Part shown: positions 9,521-58,602 of the stretch, one piece after another
Position numbering within the stretch: the first letter of the stretch is position 1
How the letters are laid out: every line of letters starts with the position of its first letter
Assembly: GCF_963921235.1 (NCBI RefSeq)
Contig: NC_086108.1
Coordinates: 39,186,001 to 39,250,000 of the forward strand
DNA length: 64,000 nt
Direction: 5' to 3'
Source: Mobula hypostoma
Taxonomy: Eukaryota
Notes under the pieces: generated by a model
Seen by the model: only the letters and a program-made list of their open reading frames with translations
Told to the model about the DNA's origin: nothing
Database searches by the model: none
Made by a program: the position numbers and the translations under genes

Positions 9521-10163
9521 CATTTTCATGTACGAATTGCCAGTGTTTTTATTCTTGTAATGTTAGATAATTATTCTCCTTCCCCAATTTACATCTTCTG
9601 CAGACTATCTTACTGTTCTATTGCTATCACCTTCTTCCATCTTGAACGATTATTCTGGTTCTCATTCAACTTCCACCCCAACACAGACCTTTTTGATACT
9701 TTTCCCCCTCCCAAATTTTTGTATGTGCTCAAGCACCCCTTTCTGTAACTTTTTGAATTTTGTTGAGAGGTTACCAATCCAAGGCATTGACTTCACTTCT
9801 CTCTCCTTAGGTGCTGCCTGATCTGATAAATATTTCCAATACTTTCTGTCTTCAATGCAGTTCAGAGCTAACCTTTGTTTGGAAAACAATCCATTTGGAA
9901 TCTACTTATGTGGAACATCTATTTTGTAAACATTATTTTCACCAAGCTTAATGAAACTTATTTTAGTGAATGTTCTATATATCATTAAGAGAGAGCTGAA
10001 TATAAATTAGCATCACTTCACACATTCAGCAAGCTCCATGCAAACCTGTCACACCTGGAAATCCCAACAATAATATTGGTTGGAGTACTTCCTCAACATT
10101 AAAATATGAATTGGTCACTTTGGGCTCAATAAGGACTTGAGGACGAACTATTGATTAGTTTTG

Positions 10164-11171
10164 TGGCAGACCACAGTACGTGTGCTTGCAACGCTGCGTG
10201 TCCGACAGAGTAATCAGCAGCACTGGGGCTCCACAGGGGACTGTCTTGTCTCCCTTTCTCTTCACCATTTACATCTCGGACTTCAACTACTGCACAGAGT
10301 CTTGTCATCTTCAGAAGTTTTCTGATGACTCTGCCATAGTTGGATGCATCAGCAACGGAGATGAGGCTGAGTACAGGGCTACGGTAGGAAACTTTGTCAC
10401 ATGGTGTGAGCAGAATTATCTGCAGCTTAATGTGAAAAAGACTAAGGAGCTGGTGGTAGACCTGAGAAGAGCTAAGGTACCGGTGACCCCTGTTTCCATG
10501 CAGGGGGTCAGGGTGGACATGGTGGAGGATTACAAATACCTGGGGATACAAATTGACAATAAACTGGACTGGTCAAAGAACACTGAGGCTGTCTACAAGA
10601 AGGGTCAGAGCCGTCTCTGCTTCCTGAGGAGACTGAGGTCCTTTAACATCTGCTGGACGATGCTGAGGATGTTCTATGAGTCTGTGGTGGCCAGTGTGAT
10701 CATGTTTGCTGTTGTGTGCTGGAGCAGCAGGCTGAGGGTAGCAGACACCAACAGAATCAACAAACTTATTCGTAAGGCCAGTGATGTTGTGGGGATGGAA
10801 CTGGTCTCTCTCACGATGGTGTCTGAAAAGAGGATGCTGTCCAAGTTGCATGCCATCTTGGACAATGTCTCCCATCCACTACATAATGTACTGGTTGGGC
10901 ACAGGTGTACGTTCAGCCATAGACTCATTCCACCGAGATGCAACACAGAGCGTCGTAGAAAGTCATTTCCACCTGTGGCCATCAAACTTTACAACTCGTC
11001 CTTTGGAGGGTCAGACACCCTGAGCCAATAGGCCGGTCCTGGACTTATTTCCTGGCATAATTTACATATTACTATTTAACTATTTATGGTTTTATTACTA
11101 TTTATTATTTATGGTGCAACTGTAACGAAAACCAATTTCCCCCGGGATCAATAAAGTATGACTATGACTAT
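10164..11171 (+). mobile_element. 5'-truncated Rex1/Babar LINE (young family A)
   Basis: ORF 10180-11031: STGAPQGTVLSPFLFTIY, KFSDDSAIVG, LNVKKTKELVVD, YKYLG. 3' end AATAAA plus (TATGAC)n tail. Confidence 0.95.
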
Positions 11172-11264
11172 TTTCCTTATGAAGGCCCATCATTTTAGCC
11201 CCAGCATAGTGGTACAAAAATTCCTCACATTTCAATATCTTCAATGCATCTATCTCCAGCCACT

Positions 11265-34949: not shown

Positions 34950-36363
34950 GAGATTTGAGCTCTCAGATAACTTTTACCAAGGTCTCAGACCTTAATTAGC
35001 TTGTTAGGGCAATGGCTTGTTCACAGTCATCGTTAGGAAAGGCCAGGTGATGCAAATTTCAAAGCTTTATAAATACCCTGACTCGTCAAACTTTGTCCCA
35101 ACATTCAGCAGCCATGGGCTCCTCTAAGCAGCTGCCTAGCACTCTGAAAATTAAAATAAATGATGCCCATAAAGCAGGAGAAGGCTATAAGAAGATAGCA
35201 AAGCGTTTTCAGGTAGCTGCTTCCTCAGTTCATAATGTACGTTTGTAATTAAGAAATGGAAGTTAACAGGAATGGTGGAGGTCAAGTTGAGGTCTGGACA
35301 ACCAAGAAAACTTTCCAAGAGAACTGCTCGTAGGATTGCTAGAAAAGCAAATCAAAACCCCCGTTTGACTGCAAAAGACCTTCAGGAAGATTTAGCAGAC
35401 TCTGGAGTGGTGGTACACTGTTCTAGTATGCAGCGACACCTGCACAAATATGACCTTCCTGGAAGAATCATCAGAAGAAAACCTTTCCTGCGTCCTCACT
35501 ACAAAATTCAGCATCAGAAGTTTGCAAAGGAACATCTAAATAAGCCTGATGCATTTTGGAAACAAGTCCTGTGAACTGATGAAGTTAAAATAGAACTTAT
35601 TGGCTGCAATGAGCAAAGGTATGTTTGGAGAAAAAAGGTACAGAATTTCATGAAAAGAACTGCTCTCCAACTGTTAAGCACGGGGGTGGATCGATCATGC
35701 TTTGGGCTTGTGTTGCAGCCACCAGCACGGGGAACGTTTCACTGGTAGTGGGAAGAATTAATTCAATTAAGTACCAGCAAATTCTGGAAGCAAACATCAC
35801 ACTGTCTGTAAAAAAGCTGAAGATGAAAAGAGGATGGCTTCTACAACAGGATAATGATCCTAAACACACCTCAAACTCCACAATGGACTACCTTAAGAGG
35901 CACAAGCTGAAGATTTTGCCATGGCCCTCACAGTCCCTTGACCTGAACATCATCGAAAATCTGTGGATAGACCTCAAAAGAGCAGTGCGTGCAAGACAGC
36001 CCAAGAATCTCACACAACTAGAAGCCTTTTGCAAGGAAGAATGGGCGAAAATCCCTCAAACAAGAATTAAAAGACTCTTAGCTGGCTGCAGAAAGCATTT
36101 ACAAGCTGTGATACTTGCCAATGGGGGTGTTACTAAGTACTGACCATTCAGGGTGCCCAAACTTTTGCTTCAGGCCCTTTTCCATTTTTGTTATTTTGAA
36201 ACTGTAAAAGATTGAAATAAAAAAGTAATCTTGCTTAAAATATTAAAGAAATGTGTCATCTTTAACTTTATGACTTTTGGAAATCAAGTCATCTTTTACT
36301 CGCTTAGCTATTCACAGTAACAGAAATTTTGACTATGGATACCCAAACTTTTGTCTGCCACTG
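34950..36363 (+). mobile_element. Tc1 (DD34E, IR/DR type) transposon; left TIR not found
   Basis: Right end acccaaacttttgtctgccactg followed by TA. Inner direct repeat gggtgcccaaacttttgc at ~36151. Confidence 0.9.
35114..36143 (+). pseudogene. Tc1 transposase pseudogene
   Basis: MGSSKQL...GEGYKKIAKRF; RSGQPRK; VL*TDEVKIEL; TVKHGGGSIMLW; QQDNDPKHT...DLNIIENLW, with 34 residues between the second D and E. One stop (35572) and two frameshifts (~35240, ~35635). Confidence 0.95.
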
Positions 36364-36779: not shown

Positions 36780-38822
36780 AAGAACTGTCCTTTGTTATTC
36801 AAATAACAAGCCATTGGTGACAAAGGACATTAAGGACATCCTGAACGCTAAAAAGAGGGCGTTTAGAGATGGAAATAGGGAGGAGCTGAGGGCAATACAG
36901 AGGGACCTGAAAGCCAGGATCAGGGAGGCTAAAGACAGGTACAGGAGGAAGCTTGAGTGGAAACTCCAGCAGAACAACATGAGAGAGGTCTGAAGGCGGA
37001 TGAGGACCGTCACTGGGTTCCAGCAAACTAGCAACAGAGGAGCTGAAGGCAGTGTGGACAGGGCCAACGAACTTAACCTGTTCTTTAACAGATTTGACAT
37101 TGTGATCCCTGCCCATCCCCCACATGAGCCATCTGTTGTCGGCCCCCAATCAACACATGCTCCACTCTCCCCTCCTATCCCTCCTCACAGTCCCCCACCC
37201 TGCTCTCATGACTATACCCCTTCCCCACACGAAACCACCACGGTGGGCTTCACAGCTGAACAGGTGAGAAGACAGCTGAAACGTCTCAACCCAAGCAAGG
37301 CTGCAGGACCGGATGGTGTCAGTACCAGGGTGCTCAAAGTCTGTGCCCCTCAGCGATGTGGAGTACTTTGCCATGTATTCAACCTGAGCCTGAGGCTCCG
37401 GAGGGTTCCTGTACTGTGGAAGAAGTCCTGCCTCGTCCCTGTGCCGAAGATGCCGCACCCCAGCGGCCTCAATGACTACAGACCGGTGGCATTGACCTCC
37501 CACATCATGAAGACCCTGGAGAGACTTGTTCTGGAGCTGCTCTGGCCTATGGTCAGGCCACAATTAGATCCCCTCCAGTTCGCCTACCAGCCCCGACTAG
37601 GAGTTGAGGATGCCATCATCTACCTGCTGAACCGTGTCTACGCCTACCTGGACAAGCCAGCGAGCACTGTGAGGGTCATGTTTTTTGACTTCTCCAGTGC
37701 GTTCAACACCATCCGCCCTGTTCTGCTGGGGGGGAAGCTGACAGTGATGCAGGTGGATGCTTCCCTGGTATCATGGATTCTTGATTACCTGACTGGCAGA
37801 CCACAGTACATGTGCTTGCAACACTGTGTGTCCGACAGAGTGATCAGCAGCACTAGGGCTCCACAGGAACTGTCTTGTCTCCCTTTCTCTTCACCATTTA
37901 CACCTCAGACTTCAACTACTGCACAGAGTCTTGTGTCATCTTCAGAAGTTTTCGGATGACTCTGCCATAGTTGGACGCATCAGCAAGGGAGATGAGGTTG
38001 AGGACAGGTCTACGGCAGGAAACTTTGTCACATGGTGTGAGCAGAATTATCTGCAGCTTAATGTGAAAAAGACTAAGGAGCTGGTGGTAGACCTGAGGAG
38101 AGCTAAGGTACCGGTGACCCCTGTTTCCATCCAGGGGGTCAGTGTGGACATGGTGGAGGATTACAAATACCTGGGGATACGAATTGACAATAAACTGGAC
38201 TGGTCTAAGAACACTGAGGCTGTCTACAAGAAGGTTCAGAGCCGTCTTTATTTCCTGAGGAGACTGAGGTCCTTTACCATCTGCCGGATGATCTGTCGGA
38301 CGATGCTGAGGATGCTCTATGAGTCTATGGTGGCCAGTGCTATCATGTTTGCTGTTGTGTGCTGGGGCAGCAGGCTGAGGGTAGCAGACACCAACAGAAT
38401 CAACAAACTCATTCGTAAGGCCAGTGATGTTGTGGGGATGGAACTGGACTCTCTCACGGTGGTGTCTGAAAAGAGGATGCTGTCTAAGTTGCATGCCATC
38501 TTGGTCAATGTCTCCCATCCACTACATAATGTACTGGGTGGGCACAGGAATACATTCAGCCAGAGACTCATTACTCTGAGATGCAGCACAGAGCGTCATA
38601 GGAAGTCATTCCTGCCTGTGGCCATCAAACTTTACAACTCCTCCCTTGGAGGGTCAGACACCCTGAGCCGATAGGCTGGTCCTGGACTTATTTCATAATT
38701 TACTGGCATAACTTACATATTACTATTTAACTATTTATCGTTCTATTACTATTTATTATTTATGGTGCAACTGCAACGAAAACCAATTTTCCCCAGGATC
38801 AATAAAGTATGACTATGACTAT
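36780..38822 (+). mobile_element. 5'-truncated Rex1/Babar LINE (young family A), full RT domain but frameshifted
   Basis: ORFs 37000-37959 (KAAGPDG, NDYRPVALTS, DFSSAFNTI) and 37931-38674 (KFSDDSAIVG). (TATGAC)n tail. Highly similar to 10164-11171. Confidence 0.95.
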
Positions 38823-38990
38823 ATTTAATTGAGTGAAAAATTTTAAAAATTATTCATTGGCTACTGCTGGCTGGGACTAAATTAATAACATTTCCTTACA
38901 GCTCGACAAACAACTATAATGCTTGTTCCTCCACTGTATAATTTTATGCTATTGTTGCAGTAAGCAACCAAGAGAATTTACAATTAGTTA

Positions 38991-55803: not shown

Positions 55804-57489
55804 TTAAGATAAACCCCAGTAAGATTGCGCTCTAATGTTGGATTCCACGTAGATTCTAGCAAGGGAGCCAAGTTACAGGTAAAGTGGGTCCCAAATGGGC
55901 AGGAGCCCAGTAATATTTGGGACTTCCTTGTACGTGAGTGGCTAAATACCTGGCAGTTCTTTGCAGAACAGCAGGCCGTAGCCAGAACTATTTCAGCCGA
56001 TGCTTCCAACGCTGTTTCGTATTCAACACCCAGCACTCCATATAAATGTAAAATGAGTCAAATCCAGATATATATATGTACTGAACTTGTTAAATTCTCT
56101 TCTTTATGAAACTTCAGTAATCCAAAATTATATCAAAATATTATTGTAAGCAATGCTTTTCTAACTGCCCTGTAGTTATTGGCATACAGTGAGTTCACAC
56201 CCAAGTTTCCAGCAAAATATCAAGACCCAAATTTTGCCAAGACTTTCACAGCAAGACAATCTGCATTCACCATTTCCACAGAGTAAATCCAACAGCACCC
56301 TCTCGAAGCCTACATGTGCACACCTGGAAGCTGCTACTAGGGATTCTCTGTTCCTCCACAGGTTGGGCTGTTAAGTTTGGCACAGAGTAACTGCAATGCA
56401 TCATCTCAACATACTGACTACTGAATTCTAGACAGACCATTATAAATGATTATTTCAATGATAGATACTTGCAAACAATCTTAGTCATATCAAATTTCTT
56501 TTCTTTGATATAGGATGTATATCAAGTCTCATTCCTTCAGTGAAGTTAGGTTGGAGGTTTTTAAAAATGAAAAACAGAAGGTATTCACATCTTTCTGTTA
56601 TCCCTAAATCCATCTTTATTTCACAACATCTTTCATACCTCAAATCTTCTAGTTTATGTTTCTGCCTTAGATTATTCATGCTTTAGGATGGTTTCTTCAA
56701 CATAATTGGTTTGCAAAGCCTTGCAGGATTATTTCCCCCTGCTGCTATATGCCATAAATCCCCATGAGTGCACAGTGCTGGATTAGTGTAAATCTTAGTT
56801 GGCAAAATCATGAGAAGCCTATGGACAACAGTGAATAGCAAGGACCATCACTTCTCACGAGGATCACTCGGGTAATCTAACACTTTTCCACATATCCATG
56901 GGCTCCCGTTCCTCTCAAAGATTTCTGTACTGTCGAGGAACCTTCATTTCTCCCAACAGATTGCCCACAGCTCCAATCACATTGAAACTTCTTTCTGTTC
57001 ACCATTTCAGAGATGCTTCTGAATGACTCGTGGTTCTATCATGTGACATTTAGGATACTAGATTAGATCAGCGGACCAAATTAAGTTAGCTGATCATGCA
57101 GGAATCTGGAGTAAACAGTCTTTGTCTAACAGCTTAAAGAAATGAGAAGGTAATGCACACAAATTTTAGCAACTTGACATCTTGAGTACACAGTTCTAGT
57201 TACTACAATGCAGGAAAGATGCCATTATGATAAAGAGAGGTAAAAAAAATCACAAAGGTTTTGCTTGGATGGAAGTATTTGAGTTATGAGAAGAGATAGG
57301 TTGGGTCTGTTTCCCTTGGAGCAAAGGAGGTGTATAGGTAGGGTAGATGGGCGTGCATGTTTCTCCCAGTGGTAGAGGTGTCTAAATACAGAGGGCATAG
57401 GATTAAAGGGAAAGGGAGAGGAATAAAGCAGATCTGAGGAGTGAATATTTCACATACAGCGTAATCTGTATCTGGAATTAGCCATCATA

Positions 57490-57556
57490 GCCTCTCAAAG
57501 TCCAACCCTACGTCCCCATTGTGAGAGGTGGAAATGGGTAAAGCCAGCCAATAAGT
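57490..57556 (+). ncRNA. HDV-like ribozyme fold (P2 decayed)
   Basis: P1 GCCUCUC/GAGAGGU with G1-U wobble; P3 ACG/UGU; L3 UCCCCAU; GG for P1.1; P4 UGG/CCA; J4/2 GCCAAU. Confidence 0.7.
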
Positions 57557-57718
57557 CTCCCGTTAAGCTGTATAGGCCAATCCCCTGGTCAGTGGATTCA
57601 ATGGATTGCAGAAGCGTTGATGAATTCCAACCATACCATCGACCTCAGAGGACAATAGAGACGGGAGGTCATCGATGGCCTATGCTCCACTGGGAGCAAA
57701 GGGCCCAAGTAAGTAAGT
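57490..57718 (+). mobile_element. Short RTE-derived retroposon (SIDE/SINE-like)
   Basis: 13-bp TSD attagccatcata (57477-57489) / attagccaccata (57719-57731). 3' end encodes VIDGLCSTGSKGPK* (RTE ORF end) followed by (TAAG)n. Confidence 0.8.
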
Positions 57719-58602
57719 ATTAGCCACCATAAAAGAGAACAACATGTAGACAATAAGCAGAATTAGGCTACTCAGTCCATCAAGTCTGCTCCACCATTCC
57801 ACCATAGTTGATATATTAAATCTCTCAACACAATTCTCCTGCCTTCTCCCCCTAACTAATCAAGAACCCGTGAAACTCTGCTTCAAATATATTCAATGAC
57901 TTGGCCTTCACAGTTGTCTGTGGAAATGGATTCCATAGATTCGTCATGCTTTGCTAAATAAATTCCTTCTCATCTCTGTTGTAAATTGGTATTGCTCTAT
58001 TCTTAGGCTATGCCCTCTGATCCTAGACTTCCCCAAGTAGGAAACATCCTCGCCACATCCACTATGTCTAGGCCTTCCAATATTCAGTAAGTTTCAATGA
58101 GATCACCCTTCATTCTTCTAAACTCCAGCGAGTACAGGCCCAGAGCCATCAAATGCTCCTCGTATGTTAACCTTATTCAAGTGACATCTGGATGGGTACT
58201 TGAATAAGCAAGACACAGAGGGATGTGGAATTAATGCAGGCAAATGGGACTGCCATGAATAGGCCCACCATATTGACATAGTGAGCCAAAGGGCCTGCTC
58301 CTATGCTATACAATACTACGATTCTATAATGTCAATATCTGCACCCTAGTTATTGTCTTCTTTGTTCAATGAAATAAGTTATTCCCGTTAATCCTATGTA
58401 GGCCTTACTCTTTCATGCAAATTTCCCCAATTGTGCTAAGTACTCTGACTGTGGCCTAATGAATGCTGTATAGTTCTGTCCAAGTTTCCCTGTTCTTGGT
58501 CAATATACCTCAGTCAATTCAGTATTTTGTAAAGTATCCTGTATTCCTTTTTTAACCACCTCATCTGCCTACGCTGTAACATTTAGACATCTTTGGACAT
58601 CC

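Follow-up and report, generated by a model that had tools for sequence, protein, structure and literature searches.

A Mobula hypostoma retroposon family with a probable HDV-like ribozyme at its 5' end and a presumed LINE-type tail

We analyzed a 64,000-nt stretch of the Mobula hypostoma genome (contig NC_086108.1, positions 39,186,001 to 39,250,000 of the forward strand; hereafter the window), in which a 229-bp insertion occupies positions 57490-57718 of the plus strand. Direct reading confirmed that this insertion is bracketed by 13-bp target-site duplications (TSDs) that differ by a single mismatch, as an earlier note on this DNA had stated, and that its 3' end carries codons spelling VIDGLCSTGS and a (TAAG)n tail, two further features that the note had named. 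The stop codon of this frame has mutated to AAA in the window copy, whereas in the consensus of its relatives a TAA directly follows VIDGLCSTGS. As argued below, the insertion is likely a dead, roughly 9%-decayed member of a 229-bp retroposon family that has no open reading frame (ORF), and in which a ribozyme of the hepatitis delta virus (HDV) type is fused to the 3' end of a long interspersed nuclear element (LINE).

The 229 bp were searched against the 3.48-Gb assembly of the same genome; in this search, as in those made with the head or the tail of the element alone, the scored set comprised the best 40-150 of 1240-1766 candidates. A first look returned 1766 candidates for the full element, and the best 40 of these comprised the window copy and 39 relatives of 83-88% identity. 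The family numbers well over a thousand copies, with at least ~1,200-1,800 candidates. Each of the 40 scored matches begins within query positions 1-5, and in 31 the start is position 1. When 30 copies were aligned together with 40-nt flanks, similarity was seen to start abruptly at the first base of the element (G57490, hereafter G1) and to stop after the tail. The flanks to the left of G1 do not align, family sequence upstream of 57490 was looked for and found in none of the 30 aligned copies, and many copies display TSDs of their own. Since this sample favors full-length copies, a second one was collected with the final 129 nt of the element as query. Among 30 such loci taken from 1288 candidates (some of them repeating earlier loci), 24 were full length, including one with a ~70-nt insert, and six were 5' truncated, with breaks at positions 18-54, as expected from incomplete reverse transcription. 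TSDs in the family measure 7-15 bp, and in the 17 full-length copies in which they could be scored, their edge falls at G1 in seven, within 1 nt of it in six more and 2-4 nt away in four; among 39 distinct full-length copies, 33 have G as their first element base. Both the non-autonomous retroposon family proposed in the earlier note and its common start at the same G are thus supported by these dispersed copies and their sharp 5' end.

The base preceding G1 is T in 21 of the 39 full-length copies (loci L001-L060), compared with ~30% T further upstream. This excess could reflect non-templated addition of an A when the reverse transcriptase reaches the RNA 5' end, or a target-site preference. 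An extra G at the 5' junction would be expected from cap copying, and the base at -1 is not an extra G. The 74 copies examined also fall into two or more subfamilies, marked by G-to-A differences at positions 109, 119, 125 and 127, all in the tail half. The head shows no non-CpG diagnostic difference between them, three differences being too few to show constraint, and its sole subfamily difference, at position 23, is confounded by the choice of query; we therefore draw no conclusion about selection from the subfamilies.

G1 is also the first base of the pattern that the earlier note had likened to an HDV-like ribozyme (Table 1). The helices P1, P3 and P4, the loop L3, the GG that follows P1 and a J4/2 segment containing C57548 are all present in the window copy on direct reading, and so is the damage to P2 that the note had reported, as AAGU at 57553-56 cannot pair with CCCU at 57506-09. 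P1 consists of 7 bp, including the G1.U wobble, in both the window copy and the consensus, and 91.9% of its cells are paired across the 30 aligned copies; the GG right after P1 can pair with the CC of L3 to form P1.1 (91.5% of cells paired), and P4 is paired in 80.5% of cells. The consensus repairs P2 to CCCU/AGGG and P3 to ACG/CGU. The four core pairs of P2 are standard in 23, 26, 23 and 28 of the 30 copies, and the helix can be extended in the consensus by way of an A x C mismatch or bulges. When all 23 proposed pairs are considered, 86.6% of cells are standard, as compared with 33-46% when the partners are slid by 1-3 columns, a control biased in favor of this structure, which had itself been derived from the consensus. 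The boundary of the head module coincides with the end of the P2 3' strand, and the rest of the element is tail.

Five dinucleotides of the head (starting at positions 22, 28, 31, 46 and 56) show the mixture of CG, TG and CA that is typical of decayed CpGs. Restoring them converts L3 to UCCCCGU, an exact fit to the UYYHCGY motif of the published HDV-like descriptor, as given in the excerpted supplement of PMC4870747. At positions 28-29, which lie in L3, 36 of the 74 copies have CA, 16 have CG and 13 have TG. Copies with TG point to CG as the ancestral state, but the source element may have had A at the position of the conserved L3 G. As for the window copy, its P2 is lost and an A stands at that conserved position, and by this model it can therefore no longer be expected to cleave.

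Table 1. Features of the 229-bp element in the window, with copies of a second repeat (Family B) that has the same type of tail; ribozyme parts are predicted
Feature	Position	Strand	Details and basis
Left TSD	57477..57489	+	ATTAGCCATCATA; recurs with 1 mismatch at 57719-57731
Right TSD	57719..57731	+	ATTAGCCACCATA
Non-autonomous retroposon copy, decayed, 229 bp	57490..57718	+	39 scored relatives, 83-88% identity; 1766 first-look candidates
P1 5' strand, GCCUCUC	57490..57496	+	G57490 = G1, predicted cleavage just 5' of it; 7 pairs with 57523-57529
P2 5' strand, core CCCU	57506..57509	+	pairs with AGGG in consensus
P3 5' strand, ACG	57510..57512	+	direct reading; consensus ACG/CGU
L3, UCCCCAU (UCCCCGU after CpG restoration)	57513..57519	+	dinucleotide states in 74 copies; motif UYYHCGY (PMC4870747, excerpt)
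P3 3' strand, UGU (consensus CGU)	57520..57522	+	one G.U pair in window copy; direct reading, consensus
P1 3' strand, GAGAGGU	57523..57529	+	direct reading; G1.U included
GG able to pair with L3 CC (P1.1)	57530..57531	+	91.5% of cells paired, 30 copies
P4 mini-hairpin, UGG/CCA	57535..57546	+	57535-37 / 57544-46, 3 pairs, 6-nt loop GUAAAG; direct reading
J4/2 region, GCCAAU	57547..57552	+	direct reading; contains C57548
J4/2 CCAA (CNRA)	57548..57551	+	C57548 = candidate catalytic C; C in 26/30 copies; descriptor match, element position 59
P2 3' strand, destroyed here (AAGU; consensus AGGG)	57553..57556	+	direct reading, consensus
44-codon frame ending VIDGLCSTGS, presumed LINE ORF-end remnant	57566..57697	+	tblastn; open in consensus
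(AAGT)3 microsatellite tail	57707..57718	+	direct reading; also in aligned copies
Family B copies	L026 2595-3001 (reverse-complement coordinates); L043 1871-2260; L030 1-75	-	

The published descriptor, which comes from the RNArobo paper (PMC4870747, supplement Figs S11-S14; the text was taken from a PDF extraction in which characters may be missing), specifies a P1 whose strands read G...:...Y, a P3 of three Watson-Crick pairs, an L3 of the form TYYHCGY, RN after P1, CNRA in J4/2 and a 6-bp P2. With its two descriptors, that paper reports no more than 7 hits in ~98 Mb and 11 hits in ~2.1 Gb. Using a relaxed version of the descriptor, which accepts a P2 as short as 4 bp and a spacer of 0-1 nt before P2, we found that the CpG-restored consensus matches from base 1, with a 7-bp P1, the GG and a CCAA whose C lies at position 59. 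The same relaxed descriptor found no match in 534,580 nt of real sequence (the window and retrieved genomic loci on both strands, decayed copies included) and none in 20,000,000 nt of simulated first-order Markov sequence. The window copy itself fails it, and of 35 well-preserved natural heads, two (L089 and L090) pass with a G at the conserved L3 position, three if R is allowed there, and five if a G.U pair is also allowed in P3.

The comparison with HDV-like models, a check that the earlier note had proposed, came out divided, since beside the fit of the restored consensus to the relaxed descriptor stand several results that weigh against a ribozyme of this class. The restored consensus does not match the strict descriptor, because one extra base (C63) separates CNRA from P2, giving a 5-nt J4/2, and because only 4 P2 pairs are contiguous (5 of 6 can form if an A x C mismatch is tolerated). 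No HDV-like family of Rfam was matched in the window at the gathering score, in 57400-57800 at E<=10, or in 20 other copies at E<=10. The conserved L3 G is an A in the majority consensus as well as in the window copy. The stems did not covary beyond shuffles (score 0.112 versus a shuffle mean of 0.114 in 30 heads), although this test is without power, as the copies decay neutrally from nearly identical sources. Outside CpGs, divergence from the consensus is 8.9% in the head and 8.7% in the tail, and within the head it is 9.2% in the ribozyme core versus 8.6% elsewhere; given this equal divergence and the lack of covariation, nothing shows selection, and the copies are neutrally decayed remnants of almost identical source elements. 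Nested folds of three near-consensus heads are of ordinary stability (z +0.16 to +0.42), that of the window copy has a z of -0.84 relative to shuffles, and in the restored consensus a competing nested fold of -20.7 kcal/mol beats the combination of P1, P3 and P4 (-13.6 kcal/mol). These folding results are not decisive, since the calculation covers neither pseudoknots nor tertiary contacts. An apparent internal duplication and a 'GRP..W' frame inside the head were also considered, and neither rose above shuffles.

The departures in P2 and P4 are of a kind found in active ribozymes, since active R2 ribozymes have a P1 of 6-7 bp, a P2 of at least 5 bp that contains mismatches in about a third of them, and a P4 that varies down to almost nothing (PMC3774820, section 16, in excerpt); the excerpted passages of that paper contain no statement on a 5-nt J4/2 being tolerated. 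As we weigh it, the deviations in J4/2 and P2 lower the case for strict HDV-like membership and leave the working model unaffected.

The same observations bear on an alternative that sees in the head either the structured 5' end of a LINE or an internal promoter, comparable to Pr77 in L1Tc, which has lost its cleavage activity or never had any. In that case, transcription starting at G1 and reverse transcription over the full length would account for the sharp 5' end, and the resemblance to an HDV-like ribozyme would be vestigial or real only in part. Such a head would sit well with the absence of an Rfam match and of covariation, the non-canonical J4/2 spacing, the short P2, the A that most copies have in place of the L3 G and the more stable competing nested fold, and there is a precedent in the 77 nt of L1Tc, which are promoter and ribozyme at once (PMC3383444, in excerpt). 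However, it leaves aside that the combined pattern lies exactly at base 1 and is absent from 20.5 Mb of control sequence, and that the head module ends exactly at the P2 3' strand, and we consider this alternative unlikely. An ordinary short interspersed nuclear element (SINE) transcribed by RNA polymerase III (pol III), with a small-RNA head too diverged to be recognized, would match the size and copy number of the family, which are SINE-like. Yet at E<=10 neither the window copy nor any of 20 other copies matched a tRNA, 5S, 7SL or snRNA family of Rfam, ARAGORN found nothing, and no A-box or B-box was seen by eye at the usual distance from the 5' end, so that a pol III origin appears highly improbable. 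Nor did the Rfam comparison of these sequences reveal a twister, another ribozyme or any other small-RNA family, the only rows being chance matches to microRNAs and small nucleolar RNAs.

We next consider the tail and the enzyme that may have mobilized the family. In the consensus, the 44-codon frame runs from about position 76 to the TAA, which is followed by ~10 nt and then by (TAAG)n. Judged by eye, the frame resembles a LINE ORF end (G..P..W...I ... R.RWR.EV) and is presumably a remnant of one. A HMMER search of its 44 aa against 1.84 billion representatives gave two matches, both to unrelated repeat proteins; there was no word match among longer proteins, nothing usable in the ESM Atlas and no Pfam match. 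Used as a protein query in the genome, it gave 150 matches, in which open frames other than the query's own reached at most 127 aa, the four longest belonging to family copies.

A search for a LINE sharing the head or the tail of the family likewise gave no partner, a result that also weighs against the proposed interpretation of the family: no autonomous LINE with either end was found among the best 40-150 of 1240-1766 candidates. Continuation into LINE sequence was seen in none of the 30 tail-drawn loci and in none of 35 head-drawn loci, all 35 of which run on into the family's own body (five with internal deletions), and the ORFs of the window include no partner LINE for the family. The autonomous RTE sharing both ends that the earlier note had suggested looking for was thus missing from these two sets of loci and from the 150 protein matches. 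The head-only and tail-only queries yielded similar numbers of candidates (1240 and 1288, respectively), which argues against a large second family sharing only one end; a rare or diverged LINE partner may lie beyond the best 40-150 scored candidates.

One candidate partner was an abundant old LINE family with a copy on the same contig, ~38 Mb upstream of the window (L072 and L061:1-1360). Matches to the Exo_endo_phos_2 and RVT_1 domains mark its protein, and its candidate copies number at least 18,848. Its ORF ends in ...AWREIVRQLEIPDAT, followed by the stop and at once by an (ACG/ACA)n tail, an architecture like that of the 229-bp family in that the stop nearly touches a short tandem-repeat tail. 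It was rejected as the partner, as its C-terminus matched the tail frame only at E=13 in BLASTP and its DNA matched neither the head nor the tail. The tail therefore has no significant homology to an RTE-clade ORF end in this comparison, which covered this one putative RTE family, and with no protein relative of the frame either, the 'RTE-tailed' label of the earlier note could not be confirmed.

These results leave room for a mobilizer outside the RTE clade, such as an L2- or CR1-like LINE, of a kind that also ends in a microsatellite; the rest of the interpretation would then still stand. The tail frame has no homology to the putative RTE C-terminus (E=13) or to any protein, the abundant LINE family of the same contig ends in (ACG/ACA)n rather than (TAAG)n, and L2-like LINEs in the window are also microsatellite-tailed, with (ATGACT)n. 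On the other side, the stop lies only ~10 nt before the tandem-repeat tail, and a stop codon close to a short tandem-repeat tail is said to be RTE style, reportedly as set out by Malik and Eickbush in 1998. To our knowledge, of the clades with 5' ribozymes, RTE is the one that inserts dispersed in vertebrates. We regard RTE as the most plausible clade because both 5' ribozymes and bipartite derivatives have been reported there (PMC5786205, in excerpt), because the insertions are dispersed and flanked by TSDs, and because of the style of the tail; the mobilizing enzyme probably belonged to it, judging from these sequence features, and a non-RTE mobilizer, while possible, seems doubtful to us.

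Several other repeats were encountered along the way. A second ORF-less repeat of ~400 nt, Family B (Table 1), has the same (TAAG)n tail and is similar to the 229-bp family in its last ~15 nt. Its copies share a common 5' start, and at least 24,042 first-look candidates were returned for it. It is ORF-less and not a LINE, and as it has no similarity beyond the last ~15 nt it was rejected as the partner; the two families may share one LINE partner. Genome-wide, the best 150 of 332,530 RVT_1 candidates all score 156-160 bits over the same length, and most lie in stop-free open frames of up to 1264-1317 aa, apparently representing a very young LINE family whose activity probably continues. Within the window, at 10151-11174 and 37781-38825 (plus strand), there are two L2-like LINE 3' parts that are 91% identical over 1046 bp, with RVT_1 and ALKBH8_N matches and ends formed by AATAAA and the (ATGACT)n tail. 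An open frame at 35613-36143 (plus strand) matches the DDE_3 transposase domain (E 1.7e-10) and is a DNA-transposon fragment.

Returning to the 229-bp family, whose membership, insertion footprints and sharp 5' end are evident from the alignments and whose consensus motif is rare by chance, we think it likely that it is a promoter-less, ORF-less retroposon that joins an HDV-like ribozyme at about nt 1-75 to the 3' end of a LINE. In this model, the ancestral first ~75 nt would encode a double-pseudoknot ribozyme, and the remaining ~150 nt would be a LINE-type 3' end made up of an ORF-end remnant, a ~10-nt 3' untranslated region and the (TAAG)n tail. A source copy would be transcribed within a longer host or neighboring transcript, and its head would fold co-transcriptionally and cut immediately 5' of G1, so that the released RNA would begin with G1; we infer this cleavage from the motif together with the sharp 5' ends. 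A LINE reverse transcriptase, presumably of RTE type acting in trans, would then recognize the 3' end and copy the RNA into a nicked target, a step that would leave the 7-15-bp TSDs and occasional 5' truncations whose footprints we observe. A further possibility is that the head did not come from the LINE partner at all and is a free-standing, portable ribozyme, a 'SINE head' that replaces the promoter, with a core of 5-nt J4/2, 4-bp P2 and 3-bp P4 fused to the ~150-nt LINE tail. It fits the finding that no LINE with the family head appeared among the 35 best heads or the 30 tails, and we nonetheless hold it to be quite improbable.

As a principle, LINE derivatives that carry a 5' ribozyme and an internal deletion have been published before (R2 SIDEs, NARTc and Kojima 2018), and the family adds no new principle. 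The papers compared here are cited from excerpts. LINEs of several kinds, among them RTE, R2, R4 and baggins, have been reported to begin with HDV-like ribozymes (Ruminski et al. 2011), and Kojima 2018 (PMC5786205) lists R1, R2, R4, RTE, Ingi plus LOA as clades with 5' ribozymes, ties such ribozymes to bipartite non-autonomous RTE, Ingi and R2 elements, and suggests that a 5' self-cleaving ribozyme explains the retention of the extreme 5' end. The predicted head resembles the ribozymes of Ruminski et al. in having its cleavage site at the first element nucleotide and a core of P1, P1.1, P2, P3, L3 and J4/2; it differs from described HDV-like LINE ribozymes in having no sequence or Rfam match, an extra J4/2 nucleotide and minimal P2 and P4, and in being predicted from sequence.

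As a whole, the family is closest in design to the bipartite RTE-clade LINEs RTESINE1/2, WALLSI3, MAR4_MD and Bov-A (PMC5786205), which are likewise short and ORF-less, lack a pol III head, combine a 5' with a 3' module, end in a microsatellite tail and are dispersed with TSDs. In contrast to those elements, no parent LINE was found for it among the scored candidates, which leaves the derivation of both ends from one LINE putative; moreover, the predicted ribozyme makes up nearly all of its 5' module of just ~75 nt, and its host is a cartilaginous fish. The short internally deleted elements of R2 (R2 SIDEs; Eickbush and Eickbush 2012, PMC3414825; PMC6765202) also join a 5' HDV-like ribozyme to a 3' end for reverse transcription with no ORF between them, are mobilized in trans and gain their 5' end by self-cleavage of a co-transcript; they are specific to 28S rDNA and co-transcribed with rRNA (PMC3414825), whereas this family is dispersed, with variable TSDs and at least ~1,200-1,800 candidates. 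NARTc resembles it in being non-autonomous and in sharing with its LINE, L1Tc, a ~77-nt 5' HDV-like ribozyme (L1TcRz), common to the LINE and its truncated derivative (PMC3383444, PMC4035085); that pair belongs to the trypanosomatid Ingi/L1Tc clade, lives in a protist host, and its 77 nt are a demonstrated promoter. In Perere-3 of Schistosoma mansoni (PMC8501958), too, a self-cleaving ribozyme stands at the 5' end, in an APE-type LINE lineage without insertion specificity, in this case of the RTE clade, but that ribozyme is a twister T-variant, and this head has no Rfam twister match. Judged by their titles, the papers listed for HDV-like ribozymes in sharks or cartilaginous fish, a CPEB review and a study of R2 distribution, describe no such element. 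The idea of a ribozyme-cut, LINE-mobilized family put forward in the earlier note is thus not new in kind (PMC5786205).

If the head cleaves, the family would be a vertebrate addition, from a cartilaginous fish, to the few ORF-less retroposons in which a 5' HDV-like ribozyme replaces a promoter. Its core would then be an active one that departs from the strict descriptor by an extra J4/2 base and a minimal P2 and P4, a departure that would account for descriptor and Rfam scans missing such families. It would also offer a concrete and testable case for the connection that has been proposed in the literature of 5' ribozymes with the origin of bipartite non-autonomous LINEs, and, were the head indeed a portable one, the family would represent a SINE class in a vertebrate that is defined by a ribozyme and not by a pol III gene.

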